Of a stretch of DNA of 64,000 nucleotides, positions 42,545 to 64,000 are shown piece after piece. The position numbers and the translations under genes are program-made. The notes under the pieces are model-generated. The model had not been told where the DNA came from, searched no databases, and was given only the letters and a program-made list of their open reading frames with translations. Position 1 is the stretch's first letter; each line of letters begins with the position of its first letter. Source of the stretch: an uncultured Alphaproteobacteria bacterium (GTDB lineage Bacteria; Pseudomonadota; Alphaproteobacteria; Methylaequorales; Methylaequoraceae); assembly GCA_902526175.1 (NCBI GenBank), contig CABZJY010000005.1, positions 11,711 to 75,710 on the forward strand. The letters run 5' to 3'.

Positions 42545-43825
42545 ATGTTTTTAAAATTCATTTGCAAATTTATTTTTATTATAATTTTATCAAATTTTTT
42601 TGATAACAATAATATTTTGACCAGAGAACTTTCAATTAAAGATTTAGAATTGAGAAAAAAGGCAGATCAGGAAAGACTTTTAGAGAGACAAAAAAGAGGT
42701 TTGAAAAAAAGTAAGATAGAAAAAAAATTTACAACAGATATTGTATTTCTTACAAAAGAAAGAAAGATCCCACCAGTTTTGTCAAATCTAGACCCAATTT
42801 TAAGTGATGAAGGTTTCTACGGAATAAAACTTGGTAATGAAGATAATCTTACTACTGGAAACTTTTTAGGCCATGATTACCAATTTAAATTTATTCAGGT
42901 GGGGCTTGAGGAAGAATTAGAGAAAGAATTTAAATTACTCGTAGATATGGGCTATAAATTTTTTATTGTTGATTTAAAGACTGATGAAATTTTAAATCTT
43001 ATGGAACTTGAAGAATTCGATGAGGTTCTGATTTTCAATACAAGGTCAAAATCAAATGTACTCAGAAATAAACTTTGTCATGAAAATCTTTTTCATGTTG
43101 CACCTAGTAATGCAATTTTAGCTGATGCATTAACGCAATATTTAGTAAAAAAAAAATGGAAAAAATGGTTTTTAGTAGTTGGTCCAGAACTTGAAGATAA
43201 AGAGTTTGCAGAAGCTTTGAAGGAGTCGGCTGACAAATTTAATGTCAAAATTAAAGAAGAACGAACTTGGGATTTTACATCTGATCTAAGAAGAACCTCT
43301 CAAAAAGAAGTGCCAATTTTCACTAAAGGAGTTAAGTATGATGTACTGGTCGTCTCCGATGTAAAGGGTGAATTTGGAGAATATTTAGCATATAGGACAT
43401 GGGACCCTAGACCGGTGGTTGGTACTCAAGGACTTATTCCTACAAGTTGGCACAGAACCCACGAACAATGGGGAGCTACACAGATGCAAAATAGATTTAG
43501 AAGAAATGCAGGTAGATGGATGACCCCTGTAGATTATGGAGCATGGGTTGGGATGCGTTCTATTGGAGAAGCAGTTACAAGAGTTTCTAATAATAATTTA
43601 AAAGATATCAGAGAATTTTTAACTAGTGAAAAATTTGGTATTGGAGCTTATAAAGGTTTAAAAGTCTCTTATAGAAGTTGGAATAGACAACTTCGTCAGC
43701 CGGTTTTACTTGCAGCATCTAGATCTATGGTATCCGTGTCACCACAAGAAGGTTATCTTCATCCAAAAAGTGAATTAGATACTTTAGGATACGATGAGTC
43801 TGAATCCTCTTGTAAAATGAAATGA
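42545..43825 (+). CDS. ABC substrate-binding protein of the PQQ-alcohol dehydrogenase / lanthanide transport system (LutA/PedA-like)
   Basis: DNLTTGNFLG, WHRTHEQWGATQMQNRF, LRQPVLL, EGYLHP..ELDTLGYD..ES.C. Confidence 0.85.
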   Translation: MFLKFICKFIFIIILSNFFDNNNILTRELSIKDLELRKKADQERLLERQKRGLKKSKIEKKFTTDIVFLTKERKIPPVLSNLDPILSDEGFYGIKLGNEDNLTTGNFLGHDYQFKFIQVGLEEELEKEFKLLVDMGYKFFIVDLKTDEILNLMELEEFDEVLIFNTRSKSNVLRNKLCHENLFHVAPSNAILADALTQYLVKKKWKKWFLVVGPELEDKEFAEALKESADKFNVKIKEERTWDFTSDLRRTSQKEVPIFTKGVKYDVLVVSDVKGEFGEYLAYRTWDPRPVVGTQGLIPTSWHRTHEQWGATQMQNRFRRNAGRWMTPVDYGAWVGMRSIGEAVTRVSNNNLKDIREFLTSEKFGIGAYKGLKVSYRSWNRQLRQPVLLAASRSMVSVSPQEGYLHPKSELDTLGYDESESSCKMK

Positions 43826-43843
43826 AAAATATAAATTAATATA

Positions 43844-44818
43844 ATGAAATCTTTTATGACATATCTTTTTTGCTTAGTTCTGATTTTTTTTGTAAGTGAA
43901 ACTGCAGACGCTAACATGGCTTATATAACCAATGAAAAAGATAATACTGTAAGTGTTTTAGATATCAAAAAGAAGAAAGTAGTAAAAACTGTTGAGGTTG
44001 GACAAAGGCCAAGGGGTATAATAATGTCTAAGGATGGAAAACTCGTTCTTATATGTGCGTCAGACGATGATAGGGTCGAAGTGAGAGACGCAGAAACAAT
44101 GAAATTAAAATATTACCTTCCATCAGGTCCAGATCCAGAATTATTTGTTCTATCTCCAGATGACAGTGTACTCTATATTGCTAATGAGGACGATGCAATG
44201 GTAACAGTTGTTGATATGGATCAGAAAATGATAATTGATGATATCCCTGTAGGTGTTGAGCCAGAGGGTATGGGACTTAACACAGACGGTACTCTATTGG
44301 TTAACACCTCAGAAACAACTAACATGGCTCATTTTATTAATACAGACACTCTTGAAATAGTTGAAAATGTACTTGTAGACGCACGTCCGCGAGTTGCTAT
44401 GTTTACAAGTGATAACAGCGAAATTTGGGTTTCCGCAGAAATCGGTGGAACAGTTAAAGTCATTAACCCGGAAGATAAGTCAGTAAAAAATACCATTTCA
44501 TTCGAAATACCAGGTGTAAATGAGGAAAGTATTCAGCCAGTTGGTATAAGGCATACAAATGATGGGAAATACACTTTTGTTGCACTTGGACCCGCTAACA
44601 GAATTGCAGTTATTGACCAAAAGAGTAAAGAAATTTTAAAATATTTACTTGTTGGACAAAGAGTATGGCAGTTAGCTTTTACACCCGATCATAAAACTCT
44701 TCTAAGTACCAATGGTGTGAGCAACGATGTTTCATTTATTAATGTAGAAAAATTAAAAGTTGAAAAATCGATCAAGGTAGGTAGATTTCCTTGGGGAGTG
44801 GTAATTTCACCAAATTAA
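43844..44818 (+). CDS. PQQ-catabolism-associated YVTN beta-propeller protein (LutB-like)
   Basis: AYITNEKDNTVS, VGQRPRG, LPSGPDPELF, VGVEPEG repeats. Confidence 0.85.
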   Translation: MKSFMTYLFCLVLIFFVSETADANMAYITNEKDNTVSVLDIKKKKVVKTVEVGQRPRGIIMSKDGKLVLICASDDDRVEVRDAETMKLKYYLPSGPDPELFVLSPDDSVLYIANEDDAMVTVVDMDQKMIIDDIPVGVEPEGMGLNTDGTLLVNTSETTNMAHFINTDTLEIVENVLVDARPRVAMFTSDNSEIWVSAEIGGTVKVINPEDKSVKNTISFEIPGVNEESIQPVGIRHTNDGKYTFVALGPANRIAVIDQKSKEILKYLLVGQRVWQLAFTPDHKTLLSTNGVSNDVSFINVEKLKVEKSIKVGRFPWGVVISPN

Positions 44819-44822
44819 ATAA

Positions 44823-45545
44823 ATGTCAGCGCTATCAATAGATAATGTGAGTCACTTCTTTGGATCTTTTTGTGCTCTGGATGATGTTGATTTCAAAATC
44901 TCCGGCGGCGATTTCACTGTATTACTAGGTCTCAACGGTGCGGGTAAAACAACTCTGTATTCTTTAATAACTCGTTTATACAATACCGCTAAAGGTGAAA
45001 TAAAAATTTACGGAAACAGCTTGTCTAAAAACCCATATCAGGCTCTTAAGAACATTGGAGTTGTTTTTCAACAGCCTACACTTGATCTAGATCTAAGCGT
45101 AAATGAAAATCTTATGTATCATTCGTCTTTACATGGTATGAAAAAAAAATTAGCTCGTTCAAGAATTGAAAACGAATTAGATAGAATAGGGCTTTTAGAA
45201 AAAAAAAATACTAAAGTAAGAACTTTGTCCGGTGGTCAAAGGAGAAGAATTGAAATAGCAAGATCTTTAATTCATAAGCCCAATCTATTGTTGCTTGATG
45301 AACCAACTGTGGGTCTCGATATAGGTTCAAGGCAGACCATTTTGAAGCATGTTAAAAATCTATGCAAAGTTGATAATCTTGCAGTATTATGGGCTACACA
45401 CCTTATTGATGAAATAGACAAAGGTGAAAAAGTTGTAATTATTGATAAGGGTAAGATTTTAGAAAAAGGTGATGTCGAATCAATAGTTAAAAGAAATAAA
45501 ACAAAAAATATAAGAGAAGCATTTAATAAGCTAGTCAAAATTTAA
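44823..45545 (+). CDS. ABC transporter ATPase (LutE/PedB-like)
   Basis: GLNGAGKTT, GVVFQQPTLDLDL, LSGGQRRR, WATHLIDE. Confidence 0.88.
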   Translation: MSALSIDNVSHFFGSFCALDDVDFKISGGDFTVLLGLNGAGKTTLYSLITRLYNTAKGEIKIYGNSLSKNPYQALKNIGVVFQQPTLDLDLSVNENLMYHSSLHGMKKKLARSRIENELDRIGLLEKKNTKVRTLSGGQRRRIEIARSLIHKPNLLLLDEPTVGLDIGSRQTILKHVKNLCKVDNLAVLWATHLIDEIDKGEKVVIIDKGKILEKGDVESIVKRNKTKNIREAFNKLVKI

Positions 45546-45552: not shown

Positions 45553-46353
45553 ATGAATCTCCCAAGTTACATAATTTGTTTTAAGGGTATCGTATTAAGA
45601 GAAGCCCTAAGATTTGTGCATCAAAGAGAAAGATTTTTTTCAGCATTAGTAAGACCTTTGGTTTGGTTAGGCATTTTTGCTGCAGGTTTTAGATCTGTAT
45701 TAGGTGTTTCTATTATTCCACCTTATGAAACATATATAACTTATGAGGTATATATTGCTCCGGGTCTTATAGCAATGATACAGTTGTTTAATGGTATGCA
45801 AAGCTCACTATCAATGGTTTATGACAGAGAGATGGGGAGTATGAAAACCATGCTTGTAAGCCCAATACCGAGATGGTTTTTGCTTACTTCTAAACTATTA
45901 GCTGGAGTATTTGTCTCGATTCTACAGGTTTATGCGTTTCTATTTATCGCCTCATTTTGGGACATAAAACCTCCTATTTTTGGATATTTATCCCTTTTGC
46001 CAGCTTTGATAGTTTCAGGACTAATGCTTGGTGCTTTAGGAATGTTTCTATCCTCGGCAATTAAGCAACTTGAGAATTTTGCTGGTGTTATGAATTTTGT
46101 AATTTTTCCAATGTTTTTTGCATCTTCGGCTCTTTACCCATTGTGGAAAATTGAAGAAACAAGTGAATGGTTATATGTAGTTTGTAAATTTAATCCATTT
46201 ACATATGCGGTTGAAACAATAAGGTTTTCACTTTATGCTCAAGTAAATTTAGAAAATACCGTGGGAATCATAACTTGCACGATTATATTTTTGACTTTTT
46301 CGATTATAGGTTATGATCCTGCAAGAAGATTCATCCAAAAAAAAGGGAGGTAA
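45553..46353 (+). CDS. ABC transporter permease (LutF/PedC-like)
   Basis: RFFSALVRPLVWL, PPYETYITYEVY, MQSSLSMVYDREMGSM, ENFAGVMNFVIFP. Confidence 0.88.
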   Translation: MNLPSYIICFKGIVLREALRFVHQRERFFSALVRPLVWLGIFAAGFRSVLGVSIIPPYETYITYEVYIAPGLIAMIQLFNGMQSSLSMVYDREMGSMKTMLVSPIPRWFLLTSKLLAGVFVSILQVYAFLFIASFWDIKPPIFGYLSLLPALIVSGLMLGALGMFLSSAIKQLENFAGVMNFVIFPMFFASSALYPLWKIEETSEWLYVVCKFNPFTYAVETIRFSLYAQVNLENTVGIITCTIIFLTFSIIGYDPARRFIQKKGR

Positions 46354-46355
46354 TT

Positions 46356-46766
46356 GTGAAAATAATATTTATGTCATTATTGTTTTTTGCATTAGAATTA
46401 AATGCAAAAGGAGATTTATCAATTAGAGCTAAAAAGCTTATTTTAGATTTGGGATCTGAAAAAAGTGATTATGATATGTCTCAAAAAATTTTTAATCTTG
46501 AAACTGGAAAAGCGTATAATCTCGAAATTACTAGTATGGGCTTTAAGGAATATGAATTTGAAGCTGAAGATTTCTTTAGGAATATATGGATTAGAAAGAT
46601 TGAAGTTGAAGGCGTTGAAATAAATGCTCCAGTGCTTGAAGGGTTTGAGTTTGAAAGAGAAGGTGAAATTGAAATAAAATTTGTTCCAATTAGACCGGGA
46701 AAATATGATTTTCAAATTGAGGGTTTAGAATCCAAAGGTATGATTGGAAAATTTGTTGTAGAATAA
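46356..46766 (+). CDS. Exported cupredoxin-fold-like protein lacking the Cys/His copper ligands
   Basis: Signal peptide; C-terminal GKYDFQIEGLESKGMIGKFVV aligns without gaps to the pseudoazurin ligand loop GIYLYQCSPHAALGMIGIVVV. Confidence 0.65.
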   Translation: MKIIFMSLLFFALELNAKGDLSIRAKKLILDLGSEKSDYDMSQKIFNLETGKAYNLEITSMGFKEYEFEAEDFFRNIWIRKIEVEGVEINAPVLEGFEFEREGEIEIKFVPIRPGKYDFQIEGLESKGMIGKFVVE

Positions 46767-46786: not shown

Positions 46787-47434
46787 ATGTATATTAAAAA
46801 GTTTTTAGTTATTTTAATGTTTACTTTTTGTTTTAGTGTAAACAGTTTAGAATCTGCTCCACCTGAATCATCACCTAAAAAATGGCCATGTGATCAAGTT
46901 TATAACCCTAAGTTAGACCTAAAAGCAGTTTGGAGTGGTCCACAAATTGATGATTTTAAGAAAAATTGGTGGAAAGATGATGAGGTTATAGAAATGGTAA
47001 ATAAATTATCTGATCCAATTCTGAGTGAAGACGAAGGTACACGGATTATTGAAGATTTTGCGAAAAAACATTCGTATTTTGGTTTAATAAAAAAGAAAGA
47101 AAGAAATACAAAATTAATAAATATTTTTGTAGGTTTATTTGAGAAAGCTTCTCAAAAAAGAAATAAGCAATATGAAGGTATAATTAAGTTTGTGGAAAGA
47201 CAGGATGTAATTAGAAAAACAATTGGAGATGCATCAAAGGAATTGAGAAAATACAGAAAAGCTGGCCTGGATGTTAAAGATCCAAAGTTCACCGAGGCTG
47301 AAGCTAAAATGAAATGGAATACCAGAGTTTTTGACCAAAGAACAAGATTAACAGAATATGTTTGTGAAGAGCCAGTTTTTCTTGAACAAAGGATTGGTTA
47401 TCAAGCCAGAAAAATACTTACCTATTTGCAATAA
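46787..47434 (+). CDS. Conserved exported helical protein of methylotroph lut/xox clusters
   Basis: Signal peptide; WPCDQ...VWSGP and YVCEEPVFLEQR motifs that I recognise from lut-cluster hypotheticals. Confidence 0.6.
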   Translation: MYIKKFLVILMFTFCFSVNSLESAPPESSPKKWPCDQVYNPKLDLKAVWSGPQIDDFKKNWWKDDEVIEMVNKLSDPILSEDEGTRIIEDFAKKHSYFGLIKKKERNTKLINIFVGLFEKASQKRNKQYEGIIKFVERQDVIRKTIGDASKELRKYRKAGLDVKDPKFTEAEAKMKWNTRVFDQRTRLTEYVCEEPVFLEQRIGYQARKILTYLQ

Positions 47435-47551: not shown

Positions 47552-47629
47552 ATGGCTTGGACTAAACCAATGATTTCTGAGATCTCTGTAGGTCTAGAAA
47601 TCAATTCATACGCTTGCGCTGAGAAGTAA
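47552..47629 (+). CDS. pqqA: PQQ precursor peptide PqqA (not in ORF track)
   Basis: MAWTKPMISEISVGLEINSYACAEK*; E-x-x-x-Y motif; AAGGAG RBS; upstream of pqqB. Confidence 0.96.
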   Translation: MAWTKPMISEISVGLEINSYACAEK

Positions 47630-50917: not shown

Positions 50918-51349
50918 ATGAAAAAAATTTTATTTACCCTAGCAATTTTTTGCTTTGCAACAACAGCTTATTCTGCAGATGTTACTATTGAGATGCTGAA
51001 TAAAAACAAAGAAACAAAACAAAGAATGGTTTATAGTCAGGAACTCGTAAAAATTGATGCTGGGAAAACTATAGAATGGTTACCAACGGCTAAAGGTCAT
51101 AATGTTGAAATGCTTGCTGGACCAGATGGTTATGAATTACCAAAGAAGACTAAGTTAAATGACCCAGTTTCTATTAAATTTGATAAGCCTGGTATTTACT
51201 TATATCAATGTTCACCTCACGCAGCATTAGGAATGATTGGTATCGTGGTAGTTGGCGGTGATACATCAAATAAAGATGCCATTGCTAAATTGAAACTTAC
51301 TGGTAGTAAATCTAAGAAGAAAAGAGATAAATTATTAGAAGGTGTTTAA
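50918..51349 (+). CDS. paz: Pseudoazurin (type-1 blue copper protein)
   Basis: Signal peptide; EMLNK, KGHNV, YQCSPHAALGMIG supply His/Cys/His/Met ligands. Confidence 0.93.
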   Translation: MKKILFTLAIFCFATTAYSADVTIEMLNKNKETKQRMVYSQELVKIDAGKTIEWLPTAKGHNVEMLAGPDGYELPKKTKLNDPVSIKFDKPGIYLYQCSPHAALGMIGIVVVGGDTSNKDAIAKLKLTGSKSKKKRDKLLEGV

Positions 51350-51360: not shown

Positions 51361-52245
51361 CTATTGAACAGGAGCTCTTCCTCTTATAAGAGCTTCTGTA
51401 GTTCCCCCATCATCAGCTATTTTTCGTTTACCAGGACGCAAACTTAAAACTGGGATATTATGTTTATTTAAGATCATATCAATTTCTTTTTGATTGGTTT
51501 TAATAAATTTATTTAATTTTTTTTTCCAATCTGTTTCTCCATCTCTAACACCCATTGTAGTGTAATAGTCCATTTTACCCCATCCCTGATCTGTTGATTC
51601 TAAGGGGATAATTACATAGTCTGATTTACTAAGTCCATTTTTGGCTAAATAATGACTAGCAATGGGTCCAGACATATAAACTATATCAACCATACCATCA
51701 ATTAAATCTTCAATCATGGTTTCTCCGATAACAGCAACTCTTGGATCAAAGGTTAAGTTATAAGGTCTAACTTTGCTCATTAGGTTATATCGTTGTAATA
51801 AAAATGTTGGGGGGGTACCAGCCTGCGCACCTATTCTTAAATCAGCTAATTGAGGGTGGTCAGGTCTATCAACTTCAACACCAGTATCTTTTAAATAAAC
51901 CATAGAGTATGCCCATCTCATATAAGGAATTGTATTCAATACAAGATCATTGTTAGCAGTGATCCCAATTATGATATCGCACTTTTTCTTATTCAAAGTA
52001 CTTCTAACATATCCTATGACTTGAGGAAAATAGTCATATACCACAGGAATACCTAACTTTTTCCCAATAAGACTAGCAATTTCATTTTCATAACCTTGCT
52101 GCTTATCGTTAGAAAAAGGCATGTTGGCTGGATCCGCACATACTCTTAAGTTTTCAGTATCTACGGCTTCAATAGCAGATTCTCTAGCTTCTGATTTAAA
52201 ATATATTAAACTTATTGAAAGCAGAAATAAAAAAAATTTGTACAT
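51361..52245 (-). CDS. xoxJ: XoxJ/MxaJ-family periplasmic binding protein
   Basis: LRVCADPANMPFSN, GYENEIA, KCDIIIG, MGVRDGETDWK. Confidence 0.9.
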   Translation of the reverse strand: MYKFFLFLLSISLIYFKSEARESAIEAVDTENLRVCADPANMPFSNDKQQGYENEIASLIGKKLGIPVVYDYFPQVIGYVRSTLNKKKCDIIIGITANNDLVLNTIPYMRWAYSMVYLKDTGVEVDRPDHPQLADLRIGAQAGTPPTFLLQRYNLMSKVRPYNLTFDPRVAVIGETMIEDLIDGMVDIVYMSGPIASHYLAKNGLSKSDYVIIPLESTDQGWGKMDYYTTMGVRDGETDWKKKLNKFIKTNQKEIDMILNKHNIPVLSLRPGKRKIADDGGTTEALIRGRAPVQ

Positions 52246-52260: not shown

Positions 52261-52890
52261 TTATTCAGCTTCTTTAAACTTAGGTAATTTAGGTAATCTT
52301 ACTCCGCGTCTAATTTTACCGTCGGCTCTTGCTTTCACATAACGATACATATCCTCAACATGAGGAGCAACGTTAGTGTTAGCGCCAAATGCAGGCATAA
52401 CATTTCCTGCTACGGCTCCTTCAGCCTCACCTCTACCATTCATAATAACAGCATAGAAATCGTCAAAAGATAATCCTTGTTGTAATGAAACCATTAGTGA
52501 GGGTGCGTAAGTACTTCCCATTGCGTCTGGACCATGACATACATGGCATTCTGCATGATAAGCTCTCCAACCTTTATAAGTTGAAAAATCCATCCAACCA
52601 TACTGCTCTTCAACTAGAGATGCATCATCTCTGCATGCATCTAGCTTTTCTTCACTTACCTGGTCGACGGCCTTACCATCACACAATATTTGTATCATAT
52701 TAAGTGGTTTGTTGGTAGATGGGTCTATTCTATCTCCCTTTCCATATTTTATAACATAGGTTGGGTTATCATTTTCGTCCCAGGCTGGTTCAACAGCATC
52801 TGGTCTAGGCACAGAATGAACTTGAAAGCCTAATGACAAAGTAATTACAAAAGCTAAAAAATTTTTGTTTATATTCATTATATTCCTCAC
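52261..52890 (-). CDS. xoxG: c-type cytochrome, XoxF electron acceptor (XoxG / c553i-like)
   Basis: YKGWRAYHAECHVCHGPDAMGSTYAPSL, VMPAFG, YVKARADG; between xoxF and xoxJ. Confidence 0.85.
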   Translation of the reverse strand: MRNIMNINKNFLAFVITLSLGFQVHSVPRPDAVEPAWDENDNPTYVIKYGKGDRIDPSTNKPLNMIQILCDGKAVDQVSEEKLDACRDDASLVEEQYGWMDFSTYKGWRAYHAECHVCHGPDAMGSTYAPSLMVSLQQGLSFDDFYAVIMNGRGEAEGAVAGNVMPAFGANTNVAPHVEDMYRYVKARADGKIRRGVRLPKLPKFKEAE

Positions 52891-52976
52891 TAATTCTCCA
52901 TATCAATAGATAATATTCTTAATATTAATAATATTGTATTTCTTAATTAAATCTCAACTCTTTTTTTATTTTTTCC

Positions 52977-53008
52977 AAAAAAAAAGCCCGACATTTGCCG
53001 GGCTTTTT
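52977..53008 (-). terminator. Rho-independent terminator after xoxF
   Basis: Minus strand AAAAAGCCCG-GC-AAAU-GU-CGGGCUUUUUUUUU, including a G-U pair valid only on that strand. Confidence 0.88.
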
Positions 53009-53031
53009 TGCAGTTAAAACTTATCTTGCTA

Positions 53032-54864
53032 CTACGGTAGAGCGAAGACAGTTAATACACCACCAAGGTTTGTGTGGTTGTGTAGTGCAGAGTATGCACC
53101 CACAGCACCTAAACCTGCAGTTGGGTCAGTAAGACCAGCAGCTAGACCAATTCCGGCCCATCCACCAACACCTGATAAGATACCAACATATTGCTTACCT
53201 TTGTGTTCGTAAGCCATGAAGTTACCAATAATACCAGAAGGTGTTTTGAACGAGAATAGTTCTTTACCTGTTTTACTGTCAACAGCTTTAGCATAACCTT
53301 CTAATGTTCCATAGAATGTAATACCACCGGCAGTTGCCATAGCACCACTCCATACAGAGAATGGCTCTGGGTTAGACCATACGATCTTACCTTTATCAGC
53401 ATCCCATGCAATGAAGTTACCTAGGTGAGTTCCGCCTGGAGCTGGGTACATTGATAATGTAGCACCAACATAAGCGTTACCAGCAACGTAGTCTACCTTG
53501 AATGGCTCATAGTCCATACAAACGTGGTTTGTTGGTACCATGAATAAACCAGATAGTCTATCGTAAGCAGCAGGCTGTTGGTCCTTAGTACCTAGAGCCG
53601 CTGGGCAGATGTTAGTTGTATTAACATCTTCACCTTGGTGAGCTGTTGAATATCTGTCAACAACTTGTGGACGACCAGTTTTCATATCAACGTGTGTTGC
53701 CCAGTTCACAGCTGGATCGTACTTCTCAGCTACTAATAGCTCACCAGAAGCTCTATCCATTGTGTAAGCAAAACCGTTACGGTCGAAGTGTACAAGAGCC
53801 TTACGGTTCTTGCCTTTTACTTTCATGTCAACAAGAATCATCTCGTTAACTCCGTCGTAATCCCACTCATCATATGGAGTCATCTGATATAACCATTTAG
53901 CCATACCATTGTCTGGGTTACGAGCGTTAATTGTCATAGACCATTTGTTGTCACCAGGACGAACAACTGGGTTCCATGTTGATGGGTTACCTGTACCGTA
54001 GTACAAAGTGTTTAATTTAGAGTCATAACCGTAGAAACCCCAAATTGAACCACCACCAATTTTCCATGCATCACCAGGCCAAGTTTTCAAGCTTGAATCT
54101 TTGCCTACAGGCTTAAGCATAGATGTAGTTTTACTAGGATCAACTAACATATCGGCATCAGGGCCCATACTGTAAGCTCTCCATAGTCTTTTACCAGTTT
54201 TGATGTCATACTGTGTCCAGTTACATCTAACACCGAACTCAGCACCAGAACATCCTACACCAACCATATCTTTAATGATGAATGGCTGACCTGAACCAGT
54301 AGATGCAGAAACACCATATTTACCAGTACCAGAGTGAAGGTTAGTTGTAACCCACTTCTCTTTACCAGTTTTAGCGTCTAATGCAATTACTGAAGTATCA
54401 GCAGCGTGTAGAACGATTGTACCATTTGGATGGTAGTTAACACCACGGTTTACGTTGTCACAGCACATAACTGAGATAACTCTGTCCATAGTCTCACCAC
54501 CTGGATACTTACCACCCTTAACTGGGTTGTACTTCCACATGATCCTTTGGTTGTCATTAAGATCTAAAGCGTACACAATGTTAGGAATCGCAGTGTGAAC
54601 ATACATTACGTCTCCGATTACAAGTGGACCACCTTCGTGACCTCTAAGTACACCAGTAGAAAAAGTCCAAGCGACTTTTAAGCTACCAACATTACTTTTA
54701 TTGATTTGATCCAATTCAGAGTAACGGTGTCCGGCATAGTCACCTGACTGCTGTACCCACTGTGATGGATCTTTCATCATCTTCTCAAGTTTAGCGTTAG
54801 CAGATACTAGACCTGGTAATGCTAATGCAGCAGAAGCGATGAGGGTTTTTTTTAAAATACTCAT
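53032..54864 (-). CDS. xoxF: Lanthanide-dependent PQQ methanol dehydrogenase XoxF (XoxF5-like)
   Basis: [30 protein letters not shown] with the extra Ln-ligand Asp, [12 protein letters not shown]; ATG at 54864 with signal peptide preferred over GTG at 54906. Confidence 0.96.
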
Positions 54865-54999
54865 AGAATATTTTTCCCTTTTATTTGAGTTAATAATAAA
54901 GCGCACAAATGTACGCTCGATTTGATTTGAAGTACATCAAAACCTAACAAAATTTAATGTGTTAGTTGATTCCTCCCAAAAAGACTTTCGTCTTTTGAT
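54865..54999 (-). ncRNA. Candidate structured 5' leader of xoxF
   Basis: Three hairpins at 54979-54996 (GAAA loop), 54936-54970 and 54899-54918 (two G-U pairs on the sense strand), plus an internal GGGAGGA. Confidence 0.4.
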
Positions 55000-55257: not shown

Positions 55258-56082
55258 ATGAGACATAATCATATCAATTATCTAATACTACTTTTATTTG
55301 TTGTCTTCTTCTTTAAGGTTGTAGATGCAGATGATCAATTACCTCCTCAAACAACATGGCAAACTAGTCTCAAGGATATGGTTTTTGGTAACGATGAAAT
55401 TTTTGATGGAAAAGATATTATTTCCCTCGAAACACCTTATCGAGCTTTGGATGCCGCAATAGTTCCAATTAAAGTGAAATTTAACAAAATTCAAGATAAA
55501 AACCTTTATGTTAAACATATAACAGTTGTTGTTGATGAGAACCCATCTCCTGTTGTAGGTAAATTTTCTACTTTTTTGAAAACTGGAAGCGCAGATATTT
55601 CAACAAGAGTAAGAGTTGATAAATATACATATGTTAGAGCAATAGCTGAAATGAGTGATGGTAAGAAATATATGGTGCAAAATTTTGTCAAAGCAGCTGG
55701 TGGATGCTCAGCTCCAAGTCTTGCTGATATGGATACAGTGATGACCAGACTAGGCAAAATGAAAATGAAGTTTCTTCATACAGGCTTAAAAGGAGAGGTG
55801 AATAAGGCAAAATTAGTAATAAGCCATCCAAATTTCTCTGGTTTACAGTTCAATCAACTCACGAGAACTGAGATTCCGGCACATTTTGTTGATTCAGTTT
55901 CAATAACTCAAGATGAAAGTAAAATTCTTGAAGTTACACCAGATATATCTTTATCCGAAGACCCAAACATTACATTTCATTATATGAATTCTGGCGGTCC
56001 TTTAAATGTTATCGTAACAGATAGCGATGGCGGAAAATTTACAAAAAGCTGGCCTGTTAATCAATTAATTAGTAAGAATTAA
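55258..56082 (+). CDS. Quinoprotein dehydrogenase-associated fused SoxYZ-like carrier protein
   Basis: Signal peptide; PYRALDAAIVP, DENPSP, TRVRVDKYT, VKAAGGCSAP, HPNFSGLQ, SLSEDP. Confidence 0.88.
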   Translation: MRHNHINYLILLLFVVFFFKVVDADDQLPPQTTWQTSLKDMVFGNDEIFDGKDIISLETPYRALDAAIVPIKVKFNKIQDKNLYVKHITVVVDENPSPVVGKFSTFLKTGSADISTRVRVDKYTYVRAIAEMSDGKKYMVQNFVKAAGGCSAPSLADMDTVMTRLGKMKMKFLHTGLKGEVNKAKLVISHPNFSGLQFNQLTRTEIPAHFVDSVSITQDESKILEVTPDISLSEDPNITFHYMNSGGPLNVIVTDSDGGKFTKSWPVNQLISKN

Positions 56083-56420
56083 AAACATTCGAGCTCAGAA
56101 GCTGCTTGTGCTCTGAATAATTTATCCATTTTTTCTTTTGATAATCCAACACTTTTAAAAGCTTCTTCCCTTGGACTAGCACCTTCCCAGAGTCGCGCAA
56201 TCGCTTCAGCTTGGGCATATTCTTTGAAGGAAATTCTTTTGGCAATCTCATCAACTGCACACGAACACTTAGCCATAAAATCCCGGTTATTTGCATTAGA
56301 ACTCATACAAGCAAATACAAATTCAGAACGCGCGTAAGTTGGAAAATCATTCACTTTTGTTGATATATTATCGTATCTAAATACCAAAAAAATTAAAGTT
56401 AAAAACATTATTTTTTTCAT
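56079..56420 (-). CDS. Small exported four-Cys protein of xox clusters
   Basis: NDFPTYARSEFVFACM...KCSCAVD...AQAASELECF. Confidence 0.7.
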   Translation of the reverse strand: MKKIMFLTLIFLVFRYDNISTKVNDFPTYARSEFVFACMSSNANNRDFMAKCSCAVDEIAKRISFKEYAQAEAIARLWEGASPREEAFKSVGLSKEKMDKLFRAQAASELECF

Positions 56421-57250
56421 GACTTATCACCACTATCCTTTCTTTTTTTATAAATTTCTCTTAATTCTTTGTTAGTTTTAATACCCTGAAAAGTAAGTGT
56501 TTCTCTAACTATATCATTTGCCTTTTGTGTATCTTTAGTAAAGGTTTCAATCTTATATATATAACCTGGAATTTTATTAGACATCGTGACTCTAAATTCT
56601 TTTGTTTTATATCTATTTACCCTGTTTTTAAGCTTTGTTTTAGTAAAAGGCTTAAAGGTAATTTCTTGTGCTGAAATATTTTCACCTTTAAAATTTAATG
56701 AAATATCTTTAGTCTCAGTTGCAGCAATTGCGTGTCTGATTCTGCTCCTAAAGAAGAGGGCATTTCCACCTGTTAATCGTTGCATATCTCTTGCATCTCT
56801 TTCAAAAAATAACATAAAGACCGGATTTCCTTTAGCTCCAATTTGTGGTGGAAACCTTACCTTATTTCTTCCTTTGAGATATCTAAAAGTAATATATTTC
56901 TTTTTTTCTTCATCAATCTTTACAATATTTAAAACAACATTACCAACAAAGTTATCTTCAAGTGTAGAAAATTTTTCAAATTTATAAAAAATTCTTGATG
57001 GTTCAGTAATTTCAGATAGATGCTCATCAATAAAAAGACTAACATTTGCACTAGACATTTCATCAATTAAACTTTGCTTATGTTCTTCTGTCCCCCATTT
57101 TGATCTTTTTTCTTCTGCATCAATTGCATCAGAAAAATCGACATTTGAATCAAGATCCTGTGAATGTAAATCTCCACACAAAAGAAATACGATGTTCAAA
57201 GATAAGATTAGCCCAAAAAAGTTTTTTATTGTTACGTTTATTAATTTCAT
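56417..57250 (-). CDS. Exported hypothetical protein of methylotrophy clusters
   Basis: Signal peptide; GNPVFMLFFERD.RDMQRLTGG...FFRSRIRHA; IPGYIY. Confidence 0.6.
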   Translation of the reverse strand: MKLINVTIKNFFGLILSLNIVFLLCGDLHSQDLDSNVDFSDAIDAEEKRSKWGTEEHKQSLIDEMSSANVSLFIDEHLSEITEPSRIFYKFEKFSTLEDNFVGNVVLNIVKIDEEKKKYITFRYLKGRNKVRFPPQIGAKGNPVFMLFFERDARDMQRLTGGNALFFRSRIRHAIAATETKDISLNFKGENISAQEITFKPFTKTKLKNRVNRYKTKEFRVTMSNKIPGYIYKIETFTKDTQKANDIVRETLTFQGIKTNKELREIYKKRKDSGDKS

Positions 57251-57792: not shown

Positions 57793-57799
57793 TTTTTTT

Positions 57800-58965: not shown

Positions 58966-60323
58966 CTGGTAAATTAGCAGAAAGACAACTTAAAAGAATA
59001 CTTGAAGCTATGAAACCTGACTTCAGTTATAAAATTAATCAAATTGGAGTTAGTGTAGCTGCCCTAATGTCAGAAAATATAATAATGAGAAGAGTGAAAG
59101 TTGATGAAACTTTTAATAAAATTATTATTCCGGGTAAGTTTAGGGGTGACTTAAAAAAATTGTCCAATTATTTTCAAATTCCAGTTGAAAGAGGCCCTGA
59201 AGACCTGACCAGTTTACCTGATTATTTTGGTATGGACAATAATGAAACTCAGCTCAACGAATCAGATTGTCTTATATTTGCTGAAATAGTAGATGCAACA
59301 ACATTGACTGTAAATGAAATTCTAACAAGAGCTGAGGAGTATAGAAATGATGGTGCTGATGTTATAGATATTGGTTGTATGCCGGATACAGAATTTAGTA
59401 ACCTGGAAGAGGTTATATACAAATTAAAAAAATCGGGTCATAAAGTATCCATTGATTCCGCTAACTATGAGGAATTACTTAGAGGTGGAAAATGTGGAGC
59501 AGATTATCTGTTAAGTATTAGTGAAAAAAATTATGACATATTAGATTCTGTTGATTCAATTCCAGTTTTAATTCCATCCCAACCTGGAGATTTGAAATCC
59601 CTGGAAAGAATAATTAGAAAAACTCAATCAACGAATAGGGATTTCTTGGCTGATCCAATTTTAGATCCAATACATTATGGGTTTGTAGATTCTATAGTCC
59701 GTTATAAAAAGCTTCGATCAATGTTTCCAGATATAAAAATACTGATGGGTATCGGAAATTTAACTGAACTAACTGATTGTGACTCCGTTGGTGTCAACAC
59801 AGTTTTAATGGGCTTAGTTTCTGAATTATCCGTATCTGCAGTTTTAGTAGTTCAGGTTAGTAACCATTGTAAAAATTCAATTAAAGAAACTGATCAAGCA
59901 AGAAAGCTTATGTACTTTGCAAAAAAAAATCAGAGGCTCCCAGTTGGCATTGACGAGAGTTTAATGTGCTTATCAAACAGAAGACTTCTTAGACAGACAA
60001 AAGATGAAATAAATCATTTTAAATTAAATGTAAGAGATAGAAACTTCAGAATCATGCTTACAGACAAAAAAATAAATATATTCAATAAAGATGTGCACTT
60101 GAAAGGAACAGATCCATACGATTTTTTTAGCAAATTGGATGTTGATAATGATTCTAGTCATGCTTTTTACTTAGGTGTAGAATTAGCTAGAGCACAAATA
60201 GCTTTGCAATTATATAAAAACTATAATCAGGATAATGAATTAAGCTGGGGTACATCTCTAAAAAAAGATAAAGTTGATCTTCATAAAAGGCCAAAATTAA
60301 AGTCAACACAGGAAAAAAAATGA
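58941..60323 (+). CDS. Dihydropteroate synthase-like Orf20 (H4MPT biosynthesis)
   Basis: ILFLTGKLAE, VAALM, GADVIDIGC, DPILDPIHYGF, MGIGNLTELTDCD, HAFYLGVELARA. Confidence 0.88.
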   Translation: MAEKILFLTGKLAERQLKRILEAMKPDFSYKINQIGVSVAALMSENIIMRRVKVDETFNKIIIPGKFRGDLKKLSNYFQIPVERGPEDLTSLPDYFGMDNNETQLNESDCLIFAEIVDATTLTVNEILTRAEEYRNDGADVIDIGCMPDTEFSNLEEVIYKLKKSGHKVSIDSANYEELLRGGKCGADYLLSISEKNYDILDSVDSIPVLIPSQPGDLKSLERIIRKTQSTNRDFLADPILDPIHYGFVDSIVRYKKLRSMFPDIKILMGIGNLTELTDCDSVGVNTVLMGLVSELSVSAVLVVQVSNHCKNSIKETDQARKLMYFAKKNQRLPVGIDESLMCLSNRRLLRQTKDEINHFKLNVRDRNFRIMLTDKKINIFNKDVHLKGTDPYDFFSKLDVDNDSSHAFYLGVELARAQIALQLYKNYNQDNELSWGTSLKKDKVDLHKRPKLKSTQEKK

Positions 60324-60895
60324 TAATTGAAACAATCATTTCTACAATGTCGAAAGAAAAAAAACCTCAAACATCTCCATTTGGCATAAAAAAAAAAAAT
60401 GAATTAATTTTAATTTCACCCTATCTCCCATCCACTACACATACTAATATGTTAGAAAATAAATATGCATCAATTAGTTATACAGATAATGCCAATATAT
60501 TTGTAGAATGTATAATAAAAAACCAAAGTTTTCTAATGGAAAAATGTACTTCTATTGAAGCTTATTATGTTAAAGATTCTCTCAAACATGATGAAGTAAA
60601 AGTTATCAATTATATTAAGGATAGTGAGCGTCCTACTTTCGAATGTGAAATAATTCATACTGAAAATCATGGGTCATTTTTAGGGATTAACAGAGCAAGA
60701 AATGCTCTTATTGAAGCTTGTATATTGGCTACGAGAATTAATCTATTACCTCAAAAAAAAATTCTCTCTGAATTAAAATACCTAGAAAATGCAATTATAA
60801 AAACTTCTGGGCAGATTGAGCAAGTGTCTTGGAATAAATTAAAAAAATTTATAGATAAAAAAATTAAAAAAAATGAATTCAATAGTCAAACCTAA
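60320..60895 (+). CDS. DUF447 protein Orf19 (H4MPT-linked)
   Basis: IIETIIST, SPFGI, PYLPSTT..N, NRA.NA.IEACILATR. Confidence 0.82.
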   Translation: MIIETIISTMSKEKKPQTSPFGIKKKNELILISPYLPSTTHTNMLENKYASISYTDNANIFVECIIKNQSFLMEKCTSIEAYYVKDSLKHDEVKVINYIKDSERPTFECEIIHTENHGSFLGINRARNALIEACILATRINLLPQKKILSELKYLENAIIKTSGQIEQVSWNKLKKFIDKKIKKNEFNSQT

Positions 60896-61616
60896 AATTT
60901 TATTAAGTGTCAAAGATATTTATGAAATCGACAAAGTTATTAATTATGCCGATATTATAGATTTAAAAAATCCTAATGATGGTCCAATTGGTTCATGGGA
61001 CACAGAAAATATAAGAGAAGTAATCAGAGCATATAAAAATATAAATTTTAGTGCAACTTTAGGTAACTTAAAAGATTTGTCAGAAGTAAAAAAAAAGTTA
61101 CCTGTATTTGATTCTCTTGGTTTACATTATATAAAGATTGGTTGCTTTTGCAAATCAATCAAAGACCTAGATAAATTCTTAAAGTTTTTTAAAAACACTA
61201 AAACTTCAGCAAGTATAGTATTAGTCTTTTTTGCAGAAAACCAAAAAATCATTAACAGTTTAGATAAATATTTTGAAACATTTATAAATTATAATATTAA
61301 GGATATAATGATTGATACAAAAAATAAATCCTCAAAGGGATTACTTGAGAATTTAACTCTCAATAAGTTACAGAAAATTTTATCAAGATGTCATAAGTCT
61401 GAAATCAGTATTGGGTTGGCCGGCAAGCTTCAACTAAGTAATCTCATTAATTTACTTTTTTTAAACCCTAATATTGTAGGATTTAGAGGGGCAATTTGTA
61501 AAACGGAAGATAGAAATTCAGATATATGCCTTAAAAAGGTGAAGAATTTATTTCAATCAATAAATTTTGAAATTAGTAAAGCACAAGAAGTTGCTGGAGC
61601 ATGCATTGAAGCATAA
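60873..61616 (+). CDS. mfnB: (5-formylfuran-3-yl)methyl phosphate synthase (Orf22/DUF556)
   Basis: LLSV, ADIIDLKNP..G.IGS, SATLG, YIKIG, MIDT.NK, GLAGKL, GFRGAIC. Confidence 0.85.
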   Translation: MNSIVKPKILLSVKDIYEIDKVINYADIIDLKNPNDGPIGSWDTENIREVIRAYKNINFSATLGNLKDLSEVKKKLPVFDSLGLHYIKIGCFCKSIKDLDKFLKFFKNTKTSASIVLVFFAENQKIINSLDKYFETFINYNIKDIMIDTKNKSSKGLLENLTLNKLQKILSRCHKSEISIGLAGKLQLSNLINLLFLNPNIVGFRGAICKTEDRNSDICLKKVKNLFQSINFEISKAQEVAGACIEA

Positions 61617-62584
61617 TATTTTTTTTTCTCTCCACCTGTAAGATAATCAGAAAAATTTTTGATTTTGTACCCAAGTTTAATTGCGTGTTTTTCTATGATT
61701 TTTTGTCCTATACCACATGGAACAATGGGGGTGTTAGATTTTATATTATTCTGCTTAATTAATTTTTTTGTACAGTGAAATATATGATTCTTTTGAATTT
61801 CTAAAAGTCTATCAATAAATTTATTAATTAAAGGATTTTTTTTTTTAAAATCTATCCCAAAGTTTCTAGAAATTCTTTTTAAACTATTTAATTCTGATTT
61901 ACTTCTGTTATCTGCCGAGTCAAAAAGATCTAAATTTTTGTTTAGCATTTTGTTCACTCTGTAAAGATCAGCGGTTGTAGAAAATAATTCAGGAATTAAG
62001 TTATATTCATTACTATCAACAACAATTTTTTTTGCTATGGCAAATAAAGGGGTTCTTGTATAACCAGTATAGATGAGTTCACAATTATTAATTCTATCAA
62101 AATCAGAAAAATGTCTATTAACAATTCTTTGATTTTTAATGATTATGATGTCAGTAGTAGTAGATCCAAAATCAATTACCACGGCTTCATTAATTTTATT
62201 TTTAATATACTCTCCTGTAGCTAGCCAATTCATTGAACAAATATCAGAGAAATTTATTCTTTTTTCAAAGTTTTTATTTTTTGATGAAAAAAAATAAAAG
62301 TTTATAAAGAGTTTCTCGCACAGCTGATATATCTGCTTTGCACCATTTGTTCTATTTACGAAACAATCAGATAATTCAGCTGTAATCGTAATTCCAAAGG
62401 TTGTTTTTCTGGGGTCTAAATATTTTAAAAGTTTATAAAGTGTTTTTTCTAGTAAAAAAAAATCTTTCCAAATGGGACATTTTTCATAAAATATAAAATT
62501 AATTTTTTTGTGTTGATCTATCCCAACTGCTTTTACATGAGCTCCGCCAATATCTAAGCCAACATAAGTACTTTTTGATTTCAT
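61553..62584 (-). CDS. H4MPT-linked hydantoinase/oxoprolinase-like Orf9 (MfnF-like)
   Basis: GLDIGGAHVK, ITAELSDCF, NWLAT, IDFGSTTTDI, ELIYTG..RTP, APA. Confidence 0.85.
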   Translation of the reverse strand: MKSKSTYVGLDIGGAHVKAVGIDQHKKINFIFYEKCPIWKDFFLLEKTLYKLLKYLDPRKTTFGITITAELSDCFVNRTNGAKQIYQLCEKLFINFYFFSSKNKNFEKRINFSDICSMNWLATGEYIKNKINEAVVIDFGSTTTDIIIIKNQRIVNRHFSDFDRINNCELIYTGYTRTPLFAIAKKIVVDSNEYNLIPELFSTTADLYRVNKMLNKNLDLFDSADNRSKSELNSLKRISRNFGIDFKKKNPLINKFIDRLLEIQKNHIFHCTKKLIKQNNIKSNTPIVPCGIGQKIIEKHAIKLGYKIKNFSDYLTGGEKKKYYASMHAPATSCALLISKFID

Positions 62585-62585
62585 C

Positions 62586-63575
62586 TTAAAATTTAATTTT
62601 TACAGTTTTTTTAAGAGGTATTATTTTATTTTCAAAATCTTTTCTACCTAGATAAATGTCTGAAATTAGGTCTGTCATTATTTCTCCATATGCTTCTTTT
62701 AATCCGCAGTATGTAGTACTAAATCTTGGATTTATTTCAATAATTTTCCAAGCCTCTTTGACCCTTATTACATCAAAATTTACCAATCCAAAAAAACCCT
62801 TTATTTTGAAATTAATTATATCAATTAAATCTTGAAAATCTGATCTATATTCTTCTAATCCACCTATAATAGAGCCAACTTGTTGAATTTTTTGTCCTGT
62901 TATTTTTACAATATGCTTATTGCAGGATAAAAGAATATTTCTATTTTCAATAAAAATAACATTTAAGCTACCAACAATACCTTTCTTGAAATATTGAATT
63001 ATATAAGGGAAATTTATTTTTTTTAATAATTTTTTTAAATCAAAGTAGTTATTTAAAATGAAAATATTTTCTGAGCCAGCGCCTTGATTAGGTTTTAAAA
63101 TTATTTCTTTTGATTTGTCAATTTTTGATAAATTACCGATAAAGTCAACACAAGGTAAGCCAACTTTTTTTAAAAATGTAATAGTACTTTTTTTAGAAGA
63201 AAATTTATTAATTAAAGAATAATTTGATAGTAGTAAATTAAAACCCATATCATCAATAGATTTAAAGACAGATTTTAATATTCCCTTAGATTCTGGAGCA
63301 ATCAATAATATTTCTGTCTCCTTTGGACAATATTTCAACAAAAAATTAATAAAATTTTTTCTCTTTGAAGTCACTAAGTATGTTATATTTTTTTTATATA
63401 ATTTTTTAAAATTCTCGTTCCGAACAACGATAATATTTGTGTTTTTTGATCTTTTAATTAATTCTTTTATTAGACAGTCAACCATCTTTAACCCTTCTTC
63501 AAAGATTTCTCTTTGGATGAACCCAGTTTTTAGTGGACTTGCAGTTAAATATTCAATTATAATCAAATTTTTCAT
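62586..63575 (-). CDS. ATP-grasp protein (Orf1 / MfnD-like tyramine-glutamate ligase)
   Basis: EG..M...L, LIAPE..GIL, KP..GAGS, IEINPR.ST.Y.GL. Confidence 0.75.
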   Translation of the reverse strand: MKNLIIIEYLTASPLKTGFIQREIFEEGLKMVDCLIKELIKRSKNTNIIVVRNENFKKLYKKNITYLVTSKRKNFINFLLKYCPKETEILLIAPESKGILKSVFKSIDDMGFNLLLSNYSLINKFSSKKSTITFLKKVGLPCVDFIGNLSKIDKSKEIILKPNQGAGSENIFILNNYFDLKKLLKKINFPYIIQYFKKGIVGSLNVIFIENRNILLSCNKHIVKITGQKIQQVGSIIGGLEEYRSDFQDLIDIINFKIKGFFGLVNFDVIRVKEAWKIIEINPRFSTTYCGLKEAYGEIMTDLISDIYLGRKDFENKIIPLKKTVKIKF

Positions 63576-63580
63576 CTTTT

Positions 63581-64000
63581 ATGATCAAGATTTTTGCAGT
63601 AGACATAAAGAACGGAAAAGTAGTTAAAGCATATGCTGGTGCAAGATTTAATTATAAACCACTGAAAATTAAAAACAAAGATTTTTCTAATGCAAATTTT
63701 CTAATTAAAAAAGCAATTGGTGTTGGGATTACAAACATTTATATTGCTGATTTAGATTCTATAACAAACAGAGGAAATAATTGGCATTTAGTAAGGAAGA
63801 TTGTAGAAACAAACCAACAAATAAATTTTTTTTTCGATTCAGGTTTTAATCGAGTGTCTAAATTAAGAAACTTTTATCTTTTTTTTAATAAAAATAAACA
63901 CATAAAAAATATTACAGTTGTTATTGGGACGGAAGGTATCTCAAGTGTAAAATTATTAAATCAATTAAGTGTGCAATTTAAGTCTATTATTTCCCTTGAC
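63581..64000 (+). CDS. HisA/HisF-related Orf17 (H4MPT cluster), truncated by the window end; not in ORF track
   Basis: Open frame to the edge: MIKIFAVDIKNGKVVKAYAGARFNYKP...IYIADLDSI...FDSGF...VIGTE. Confidence 0.8.
   Translation, partial: MIKIFAVDIKNGKVVKAYAGARFNYKPLKIKNKDFSNANFLIKKAIGVGITNIYIADLDSITNRGNNWHLVRKIVETNQQINFFFDSGFNRVSKLRNFYLFFNKNKHIKNITVVIGTEGISSVKLLNQLSVQFKSIISLD

Follow-up and report, generated by a model that had tools for sequence, protein, structure and literature searches.

Introduction

Methylotrophy in the order TMED127 (Methylaequorales) has been described from genomes of ~1.5 Mb that carry a "methylotrophy island" of ~45 kb (Glass, Warters & Alajlan 2025, Applied and Environmental Microbiology, PMC12542740). 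The island, drawn from the metagenome-assembled genome (MAG) CM1_5m.P40 and occurring in 44 of 64 genomes, combines modules for hopanoids, for tetrahydromethanopterin (H4MPT) synthesis and one-carbon transfer, for methanol oxidation and for pyrroloquinoline quinone (PQQ) synthesis with an uptake set, lutABEFCG, that does not include lutH; the same analysis records no lanmodulin in the order and supports its obligate methylotrophy (PMC12542740). The present work concerns a stretch of 64,000 nucleotides (hereafter the window) from an uncultured alphaproteobacterium, corresponding to positions 11711-75710 of contig CABZJY010000005.1 (here C5). The parent assembly has a size of 1.33 Mb in 31 contigs, a guanine-plus-cytosine (GC) content of ~29%, a completeness of 83% and a contamination of 0%. 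From position 42545 onward the window holds genes for lanthanide uptake, PQQ synthesis, a XoxF-type methanol dehydrogenase and H4MPT/methylofuran synthesis, and we regard this region as very probably this genome's copy of the conserved TMED127/Methylaequorales island.

In Methylorubrum extorquens AM1 the order of genes is xoxF1, xoxG, xoxJ, an interval, orf6, orf7, pqqE, pqqCD and pqqB, and lutG follows lutF in a lut cluster that also possesses lutD, lutH and lanmodulin; the 6.9 Mb genome also encodes the calcium-dependent MxaFI (PMC7391723). Lanthanide transport by Lut has been demonstrated genetically in AM1 only, where knockouts of lutC, lutD, lutG, orf6 and orf7 have all been grown. On methanol plus lanthanum, deletion of orf6 lowered the growth rate from 0.16 to 0.03 per hour, without orf7 growth lagged by 9 h and reached 0.08 per hour, and loss of lutG slowed growth to 0.03 per hour; the lutC deletion caused a small defect and that of lutD no significant one (PMC7391723). 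The locus described here shares with AM1 the proteins XoxF1, XoxG and XoxJ, pqqBCDE, lutA/B/E/F and exported families of the lutC/G type (PMC7391723) and, as judged through Methylobacterium thuringiense, presumably the orf6/orf7 pair beside pqqE. By comparison with AM1, its TonB-dependent receptor is 39 kb distant, no second methanol dehydrogenase was detected in the assembly, and the lut, pqq, xox and H4MPT genes form one contiguous block.

Identity with the published methylotrophy island

Gene content, the intactness of the genes and their synteny can be read directly from the assembly. Between the start of lutA (C5 54255) and the end of hpnB (C5 97928) lie 43.7 kb, as against the published ~45 kb, so that the sizes of both island and genome agree with those reported, and the modules occur in the published order. 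A tblastn comparison using all open reading frames (ORFs) of C5 reveals that positions 43-116.5 kb of this contig are gene-for-gene collinear with 180-253.6 kb of CM1_5m.P40, a span of ~73 kb. The shared content consists of lutABEF with two small ORFs, the pqq genes, xoxJGF with a SoxYZ-like gene and two hypotheticals, and the genes for H4MPT/methylofuran synthesis, one-carbon transfer and hopanoids; a pseudoazurin gene is also common to both genomes, which belong to the same GTDB family. Collinearity extends past the island for at least 11 kb on the left and at least 18 kb on the right, into housekeeping genes (ribonucleotide reductase, TrkH, CtaA, cysHDN). The presence of such flanks on both sides indicates that this arrangement of the chromosome is old and fixed in the family and was not acquired recently.

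At the protein level XoxF and Fae are 96% identical to their CM1_5m.P40 counterparts, the lut and pqq products 72-92% (LutA 68%) and several cofactor-biosynthesis enzymes 33-49%, a spread that fits a different genus. The two islands differ in this generic assignment and in an in-frame TAA within hpnE of the present assembly. In the CM1_5m.P40 assembly several genes are broken up into series of short ORFs or recovered by tblastn in part only (L093 151-5196; the homologue of the 277-aa ORF described below), which suggests frameshift errors in that assembly.

The first-pass annotation of the region, made from its sequence, had pointed to a similar inventory in TMED127/"Ca. Methylaequorales", correctly so, and had allowed that an identical published cluster would remove the novelty. 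A collinear cluster of the same content and order, the ~45 kb island, has indeed been published (PMC12542740), and the novelty of the island is thereby removed. The inventory itself held: every gene class that had been named between 42545 and 64000 was found there, many of them above curated cut-offs, and the predicted continuation past the edge of the window was found in the C5 genes that run on to hpnB.

Might the cluster instead be a mobile genomic island that this genome alone acquired in the recent past, and hence a new event of horizontal transfer? GC content ranges from 25 to 37% along the window, and the island region, at 33-37%, stands above its surroundings at 28-31%. Moreover, XoxF is 96% identical across genera where its neighbours are 33-86% identical, and identity at the third codon position between xoxF and its CM1_5m.P40 counterpart is 0.77 as compared with 0.45-0.55 for neighbouring genes. 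Against this stand the collinear housekeeping flanks and the presence of the island in all 14 genera of the order; within the ORF annotations made, neither an integrase nor a tRNA was seen at the island edges. The GC and codon signal is, furthermore, confined to xoxF, the GC content of its third codon positions (GC3) being 0.32 (neighbours 0.18-0.24) and the same codon being used for 0.76 of the residues identical with CM1_5m.P40 (neighbours ~0.5). This synonymous conservation is consistent with strong selection on codon usage in a gene of very high expression. In the single-amplified genome AG-892-F10, xoxF5 accounts for 16-57% of the mapped transcripts (PMC12542740). Recent transfer as the cause of the 96% identity was rejected because the flanks are collinear and the GC3 and synonymous signal is limited to xoxF; acquisition of the whole cluster in this way appears extremely improbable.

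Host lineage

The host is a streamlined low-GC marine alphaproteobacterium, and the first-pass annotation was right in placing a module for lanthanide uptake, PQQ, XoxF and H4MPT in such an organism. Its GTDB order currently consists of 42 species in 14 genera and one family, with genomes of 0.8-2.0 Mb. When species-representative genomes were scanned with its XoxF, CM1_5m.P40 and seven AG-/LRMED genomes were recovered at 95-96% identity, after which matches fell to at most 70%. In the order-wide search, genome G029 possesses xoxF at positions 201680-203524 of its contig C1; these are the coordinates of the CM1_5m.P40 locus (L003), which places CM1_5m.P40 in the same GTDB family as this genome. 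Membership of TMED127, an order of one family, follows by this association. The present genome belongs to genus g1 and CM1_5m.P40 to genus g11. XoxF was detected in 31 of the 42 genomes, covering 14/14 genera and all nine of the high-quality genomes.

Malyl-CoA lyase and carbon assimilation

Several observations weigh against the reading preferred here. A search of this 83%-complete genome for malyl-CoA lyase (PF03328) gave no match; the genome has one Mpt_N gene only, the island mtdB, no separate mtdA being detected in the assembly; a route of assimilation is thus not demonstrated here. Genus g1 contains two species only, and most of its island proteins are 33-86% identical to those of CM1_5m.P40. 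Lastly, TIGR03861, TIGR03863, TIGR03864 and TIGR03866 would equate to LutF, LutA, LutE and LutB, respectively, by way of the annotation in the published paper and of gene order elsewhere.

The first two of these points are also what would be expected if the lineage lacked the serine cycle and oxidised methanol in a dissimilatory manner only, for energy ("methylovory"), in which case it would not be a true methylotroph. A match to HpcH/HpaI (malyl-CoA lyase) was likewise not found in the sole congener, G009, which is 54% complete. The distribution of the malyl-CoA lyase gene (mcl) in relatives argues otherwise. It was found in 32 of the 42 genomes and 12 of the 14 genera of the order, and on shared contigs it is located 60-62 kb downstream of xoxF, whereas C5 ends (at 116564) 50 kb downstream of that gene. 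In CM1_5m.P40 the 15 kb past the last gene with a match on C5 contain aroB, aroK, an integrase-family gene, mcl, accA, secA, argJ and a NUDIX gene; on its left this segment is bordered by genes that match the end of C5, on its right by genes that match the beginning of contig C1 of the present assembly. No tblastn match to secA, aroB, aroK or argJ was obtained in this genome, and accA gave a weak partial match of 30% identity. The absence of essential genes alongside mcl points to a gap of ~15 kb in the assembly between C5 and C1 rather than to loss of the serine cycle, and such a loss was rejected as the explanation on this ground. The ftfL gene is present; malyl-CoA lyase was the sole serine-cycle marker sought. 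Given ftfL, the incompleteness of both genomes and the position of mcl in relatives, a purely dissimilatory metabolism seems very improbable, and we retain the view of the region as the island of a methylotrophic order.

The methanol dehydrogenase and its partners

The central enzyme is encoded by xoxF5 (53032..54906, - strand), a predicted lanthanide-dependent methanol dehydrogenase that matches TIGR03075 with 674 bits (cut-off 480). Its top match in the PDB is XoxF1 of M. extorquens AM1 (6oc5, E 6e-264), and it is 96% identical to the XoxF5 proteins of TMED127. XoxF enzymes are set apart from MxaF by an aspartate two residues past the catalytic aspartate (DYD; DYA in MxaF). In the present protein the motif DEWDYDG aligns to DEWDFDG of 6oc5; Asp349 is the catalytic residue and Asp351 the lanthanide-type one, and by this ligand signature XoxF is of the lanthanide type; a vicinal Cys-Cys is also present. 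A search of the whole 83%-complete assembly with XoxF at E<=1e-50 recovered no second methanol dehydrogenase or mxaF-like gene; the first-pass annotation had raised mxaFI as something to be sought elsewhere in the genome.

Enzymes of the XoxF type are also active in vitro on formaldehyde and on other alcohols, and substrate preference is not fixed by sequence alone. It could therefore be argued that XoxF acts here mainly on another substrate (formaldehyde, ethanol or small alcohols) and that the H4MPT pathway serves formaldehyde detoxification. Yet among solved structures the nearest is that of methanol dehydrogenase XoxF1 from AM1, xoxF is co-located with the full Fae/Mtd/Mch/Fhc route and with the synthesis of its cofactors, and the published analysis favours obligate methylotrophy of the order (PMC12542740). 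We consider this alternative very improbable and take methanol to be the likely substrate.

Downstream of xoxF lie xoxG, a c-type cytochrome gene (52261..52890, - strand) with a Pfam Cytochrome_CBB3 match, a CHVCH haem motif and 119.8 bits to TIGR03874, below the cut-off of 161.75, and xoxJ, encoding a periplasmic binding protein (51361..52245, - strand; TIGR03871, 238.5 bits, cut-off 212). Neighbouring genes were compared across 72 xoxF5 loci from outside TMED127, each taken with 10 kb on either side, using tblastn and jackhmmer coordinates; a xoxG homologue is found downstream of xoxF in 67 of these 72.

A hairpin resembling an intrinsic terminator (52971..53009, - strand; stem GCCCGGC-AAAU-GUCGGGC followed by U9) is situated between xoxF and xoxG, directly 3' of the stop codon of the former, and its minimum free energy has a z-score of -3.5 relative to shuffled sequences. 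It suggests that XoxF is produced in excess over XoxG and XoxJ. This terminator, the raised GC3 and the synonymous conservation of xoxF are indirect signs, at most, of high transcription in surface seawater. A consensus scan of 50800-57400 for promoters (27 versus 26.7 in shuffles) and terminators (2 versus 3.5) was close to the shuffled expectation and missed this hairpin, and no conclusions on operons were drawn from it.

One-carbon transfer, cofactor synthesis and hopanoid genes

The genes for the H4MPT-linked oxidation of formaldehyde are all present. Past the window C5 continues with fae (259 bits, TIGR03126), a CitG-like gene, a MptN-like ligase, mch (401 bits) and an ATP-grasp gene, and then with mtdB (Mpt_N, 120 bits), mptG, a pterin-4a-carbinolamine dehydratase-like gene, fhcB, fhcD (413-431 bits) and fhcC (187 bits). 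Matches for fae, mch, Mpt_N, fhcD and fhcC are all above cut-off. The fhcB product is short (341 aa), scores 99.9 bits against a cut-off of 327.8 and is 34% identical between genera. The remaining subunit gene, fhcA, is unlinked (C2:86688-88295, 651 bits) and without internal stops, and is also an intact single match in five relatives. The alpha subunit of formate dehydrogenase is encoded on C1 (770 bits) and ftfL on C2 (866 bits). Missing or pseudogenised one-carbon-transfer enzymes, which would have told against the module proposed by the first-pass annotation, were not encountered: fae, mtdB, mch and fhcABCD are present and uninterrupted in this assembly, and mptG, the formate dehydrogenase gene and ftfL are intact as well. 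By contrast, the description of the 21.5 kb within the window as close to a minimal blueprint was overstated, since the TonB-dependent receptor lies 39 kb upstream, fhcA and ftfL are on C2, formate dehydrogenase is on C1 and, in relatives, malyl-CoA lyase is found ~60 kb downstream of xoxF.

Genes with a presumed role in H4MPT and methylofuran synthesis occupy the right end of the window. On the + strand these are a FolB-like aldolase (57304-57792; Pfam FolB), a MfnE-like kinase (57800-58426; Pfam AA_kinase, NCBIfam MfnE under cut-off), an AfpA/DmrX-type flavoprotein (58405-58965; Pfam Flavoprotein, TIGR02700/02699 under cut-off), a dihydropteroate synthase (DHPS)-like protein with DUF6513 (58941-60323; DUF6513 and Pterin_bind, TIGR00284 under cut-off), a DUF447 protein (60320-60895; DUF447_N/C) and the 4-HFC-P synthase MfnB (60873-61616; 4HFCP_synth); from 57304 to 61616 they are collinear with CM1_5m.P40 at 39-70% identity. 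Two genes follow on the - strand: a MfnF-like member of TIGR03123, named for the "H4MPT-linked C1 transfer pathway" (61553-62584; 235.8 bits, cut-off 244.1; NF040623 MfnF, 145 bits), and an ATP-grasp, MfnD-like ligase (62586-63575; ATP-grasp_3, 69 bits; MfnD, 52.7 bits). A HisA/HisF-related gene on the + strand (TIGR00734, His_biosynth) starts at 63581 and crosses the edge of the window at 64000 to end at 64252, counting on from the window.

In the same numbering the island ends with hpnB at 86218. Its last part is a hopanoid/isoprenoid block on C5 (hpnM, hpnA, ispH, hpnH, shc, hpnE, hpnD, dxs, hpnC and hpnB), beyond which ordinary genes are found (a porin, ctaA, cysHDN). The block is intact apart from hpnE, the hydroxysqualene dehydroxylase gene on the - strand, where a single in-frame TAA (C5 92369-92371, equivalent to 80659-80661 of the window numbering; L081:17369-17371) opens a run of 12 A (ATA TAA AAA AAA AAA) in what is otherwise a single open frame. 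A genuine nonsense mutation or a miscalled base in the homopolymer could account for it.

Putative lanthanide uptake

The left end of the island is a tightly spaced operon of four genes on one strand (+), separated by gaps of 2-20 nt: a lutA/pedA1-type periplasmic binding protein of a PQQ-alcohol-dehydrogenase-associated ATP-binding cassette (ABC) transporter (42545..43825; TIGR03863, 455 bits, cut-off 413.6), which in CM1_5m.P40 has its 68%-identical homologue in collinear position; a lutB/pedA2-type exported beta-propeller (43844..44818; TIGR03866, 484 bits, cut-off 287); a lutE/pedB-type ABC ATPase (44823..45545; TIGR03864, 328 bits, cut-off 302); and a lutF/pedC-type ABC-2 permease (45553..46353; TIGR03861, 412 bits, cut-off 241). 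Of the 72 comparison loci, 29 have a lutB-type homologue no more than 10 kb from xoxF. These four families constitute the ABC set of PQQ-alcohol-dehydrogenase systems, the short name of TIGR03861 being phenyl_ABC_PedC, and the set is complete here. The four genes are presumably comparable to those for the lanthanide ABC transporter PedA1A2BC of Pseudomonas putida, which operates in the context of PedH/PedE ethanol oxidation and not of methylotrophy, and without linkage to H4MPT.

Two further exported proteins with signal-like hydrophobic N-termini are encoded on the same strand downstream. The first, of 136 aa (46356..46766, +), has no match in Pfam, NCBIfam or the PDB, and no solved lanthanide-binding protein was among its PDB sequence matches. 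Homologues were found at seven TMED127 loci and at 4 of the 72 others, and in the loci of Ancylobacter (L019) and Hyphomicrobium (L046) the gene lies between lutB and lutE, as against after lutF here; it thus takes the position that lutC/lutD hold in other bacteria. The second, of 215 aa (46787..47434, +), is also without a Pfam, NCBIfam or PDB match; homologues are present at 26 of the 72 loci and abut lutF in 18 of 19, which makes it the positional equivalent of lutG.

No TonB-dependent receptor corresponding to the adjacent lutH of AM1 is encoded within the island. The only such receptor detected in the assembly, as the sole tblastn match (898..3408, + strand; Plug and TonB_dep_Rec_b-barrel), lies 39 kb upstream. 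Full-length homologues of 31-32% identity occur within 10 kb of xoxF in six Xanthobacter/Bradyrhizobium loci. Across the order the receptor is present in 34 of the 42 genomes, including 9/9 of high quality, and where it shares a contig with xoxF the distance between them is conserved at 52-53 kb. From this linkage we infer that it is a reasonable candidate for lutH and a putative outer-membrane lanthanide importer, one that is not named in PMC12542740.

Exported proteins beside xoxF

Three genes lie between xoxF and the cofactor-synthesis genes. Divergent from xoxF is a gene (55258..56082, + strand) for a fused SoxYZ-like carrier of the quinoprotein-dehydrogenase-associated family (TIGR04557, 244 bits, cut-off 140), a homologue of which is found near xoxF in 27 of the 72 loci. 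It is followed on the - strand by ORFs of 113 aa (56079..56420) and 277 aa (56417..57250), both with signal-like hydrophobic N-termini and without a match in Pfam, NCBIfam or among PDB sequences.

A homology search with the 113-aa protein returned close relatives only, none with Pfam domains; homologues were located at 26 of the 72 loci. Their alignment (A1) reveals invariant T28, V35, C38, M39, C52, C54, D57, Y68 and C112, that is, four invariant cysteines, together with an NDYPT-ARADYVF-CM motif. AlphaFold2 predicts an all-helical bundle (mean predicted local distance difference test, pLDDT, 85.6), to which Foldseek found no match at E<1. The 277-aa protein has homologues at 11 of the 72 loci, and in each of the ten loci (10/10) that possess both genes the two abut. 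Its family is characterized by an invariant GNP and two proline-containing motifs. Its AlphaFold2 model (pLDDT 85.6; predicted template modelling score 0.74) resembles LolA3, NE2245, LprG and LppX in Foldseek, with good probability and E-values of 7e-5 to 5e-4, at template modelling (TM) scores of 0.25-0.38; a LolA/LprG-like half-barrel is weakly suggested, as a lead and not as a fold assignment.

The position of the pair in other bacteria provides some insight. In Methylobacterium thuringiense (L075) the order of genes is xoxF, xoxG, xoxJ, an interval, the 113-like gene, the 277-like gene, pqqE, pqqC and pqqB, so that the 113-like gene is two genes away from pqqE. By this position in a congener, we surmise that the 113-aa and 277-aa proteins are the equivalents of AM1 orf6 and orf7. 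A MAG of the Dongiaceae (L015) repeats the run found here, with DUF447, DHPS-like, flavoprotein, kinase, FolB, 277-aa, 113-aa and SoxYZ-like genes, xoxF and xoxJ in succession and lut genes thereafter; Hyphomicrobium (L046) and Roseibium (L062) have the 277-aa, 113-aa and SoxYZ trio beside xoxF. These loci and that of Ancylobacter differ from the present one in their high GC content, partly large genomes, interspersed extra genes and protein identities of 22-68%. On these comparisons the four exported ORFs without a family are conserved neighbours of xoxF5 and lut in other Proteobacteria, not specific to this lineage. The expectation that the genes of unknown function would be new components was overstated as well, as they are homologues of conserved genes at the lutC/D, lutG, orf6 and orf7 positions, for which AM1 knockouts exist (PMC7391723).

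One may speculate that the SoxYZ-like carrier and the 113-aa and 277-aa proteins form a single periplasmic accessory module of XoxF5, with the TonB-dependent receptor acting as a lanthanophore-independent outer-membrane lanthanide importer, a proposal that we hold to be doubtful though conceivable. The role of such a module may be the delivery or insertion of the cofactor (Ln3+ and/or PQQ), or a thiol/persulfide relay by which the vicinal Cys-Cys of XoxF stays functional.

PQQ synthesis and pseudoazurin

The genes for PQQ synthesis are all on the + strand. The precursor peptide PqqA, of 25 aa (MAWTKPMISEISVGLEINSYACAEK; 47552..47629), was read from intergenic sequence directly upstream of pqqB, being too short for the ORF list, and displays the E-x3-Y motif. 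It is followed by pqqB (47699-48628; TIGR02108, 387 bits), pqqC (48625-49407; TIGR02111, 340 bits), pqqD (within 49316-49669; TIGR03859, 68 bits) and pqqE (49666-50811; TIGR02109, 574 bits), each above cut-off.

Between pqqE and xoxJ lies a gene for a pseudoazurin-like type-1 copper protein (50918..51349, + strand; Pfam Copper-bind, 54.5 bits). It scores 90.5 bits to TIGR02375, under the cut-off of 109.85, with the C-x2-H-x4-M ligand loop visible, and is a candidate electron acceptor. The gene is found in 6 of 8 TMED127 loci, including CM1_5m.P40, and a homologue near xoxF in one of the 72 comparison loci. In AG-337-E20 and AG-915-O07 (L001 and L005), which belong to two other genera, the gene is absent and pqqE abuts xoxJ.

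Proposed pathway and significance

The flux, metal specificity and expression that we infer for the island would be as follows. By the AM1 paradigm and the protein families, periplasmic lanthanide would be moved to the cytoplasm by the LutA/B/E/F-type ABC system, assisted by the two exported proteins encoded at the lutC/D and lutG positions. Passage across the outer membrane would probably depend on the sole TonB-dependent receptor 39 kb upstream. PqqA-E would supply PQQ. In the periplasm XoxF5, loaded with lanthanide and PQQ, would oxidise methanol and pass electrons to XoxG, possibly also to the pseudoazurin-like protein; XoxJ would be accessory to XoxF5, and the SoxYZ-like carrier and the orf6/orf7-like exported pair would accompany it. 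Fae would capture the formaldehyde, whose oxidation on H4MPT and methylofuran would proceed by way of MtdB, Mch and FhcABCD, the resulting formate passing to formate dehydrogenase or FtfL.

The region does not represent a new type of system: it documents the published island, with intact pathway genes, in one more and fairly divergent genus. To the published description it adds that the "hypothetical" exported genes of the island are widely conserved neighbours of xoxF5 and lut and positional matches to AM1 lutC/D, lutG, orf6 and orf7; that the orf7-like protein has a confident model with a weak likeness to LolA/LprG, and the orf6-like protein is predicted to be a four-cysteine helical bundle without a structural relative; and that a single, order-wide TonB-dependent receptor at a fixed distance from xoxF, unnamed in PMC12542740, is a candidate for lutH. 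Should the SoxYZ/113-aa/277-aa module prove true, its retention in streamlined genomes of 1.3-1.5 Mb would mark it out as a component at the core of lanthanide methylotrophy that has yet to be described. As TMED127/Methylaequorales are reported to show the highest transcriptional activity among the methanol oxidisers of the oligotrophic surface ocean, an accurate parts list of the island matters for the cycling of marine carbon and of rare earths.

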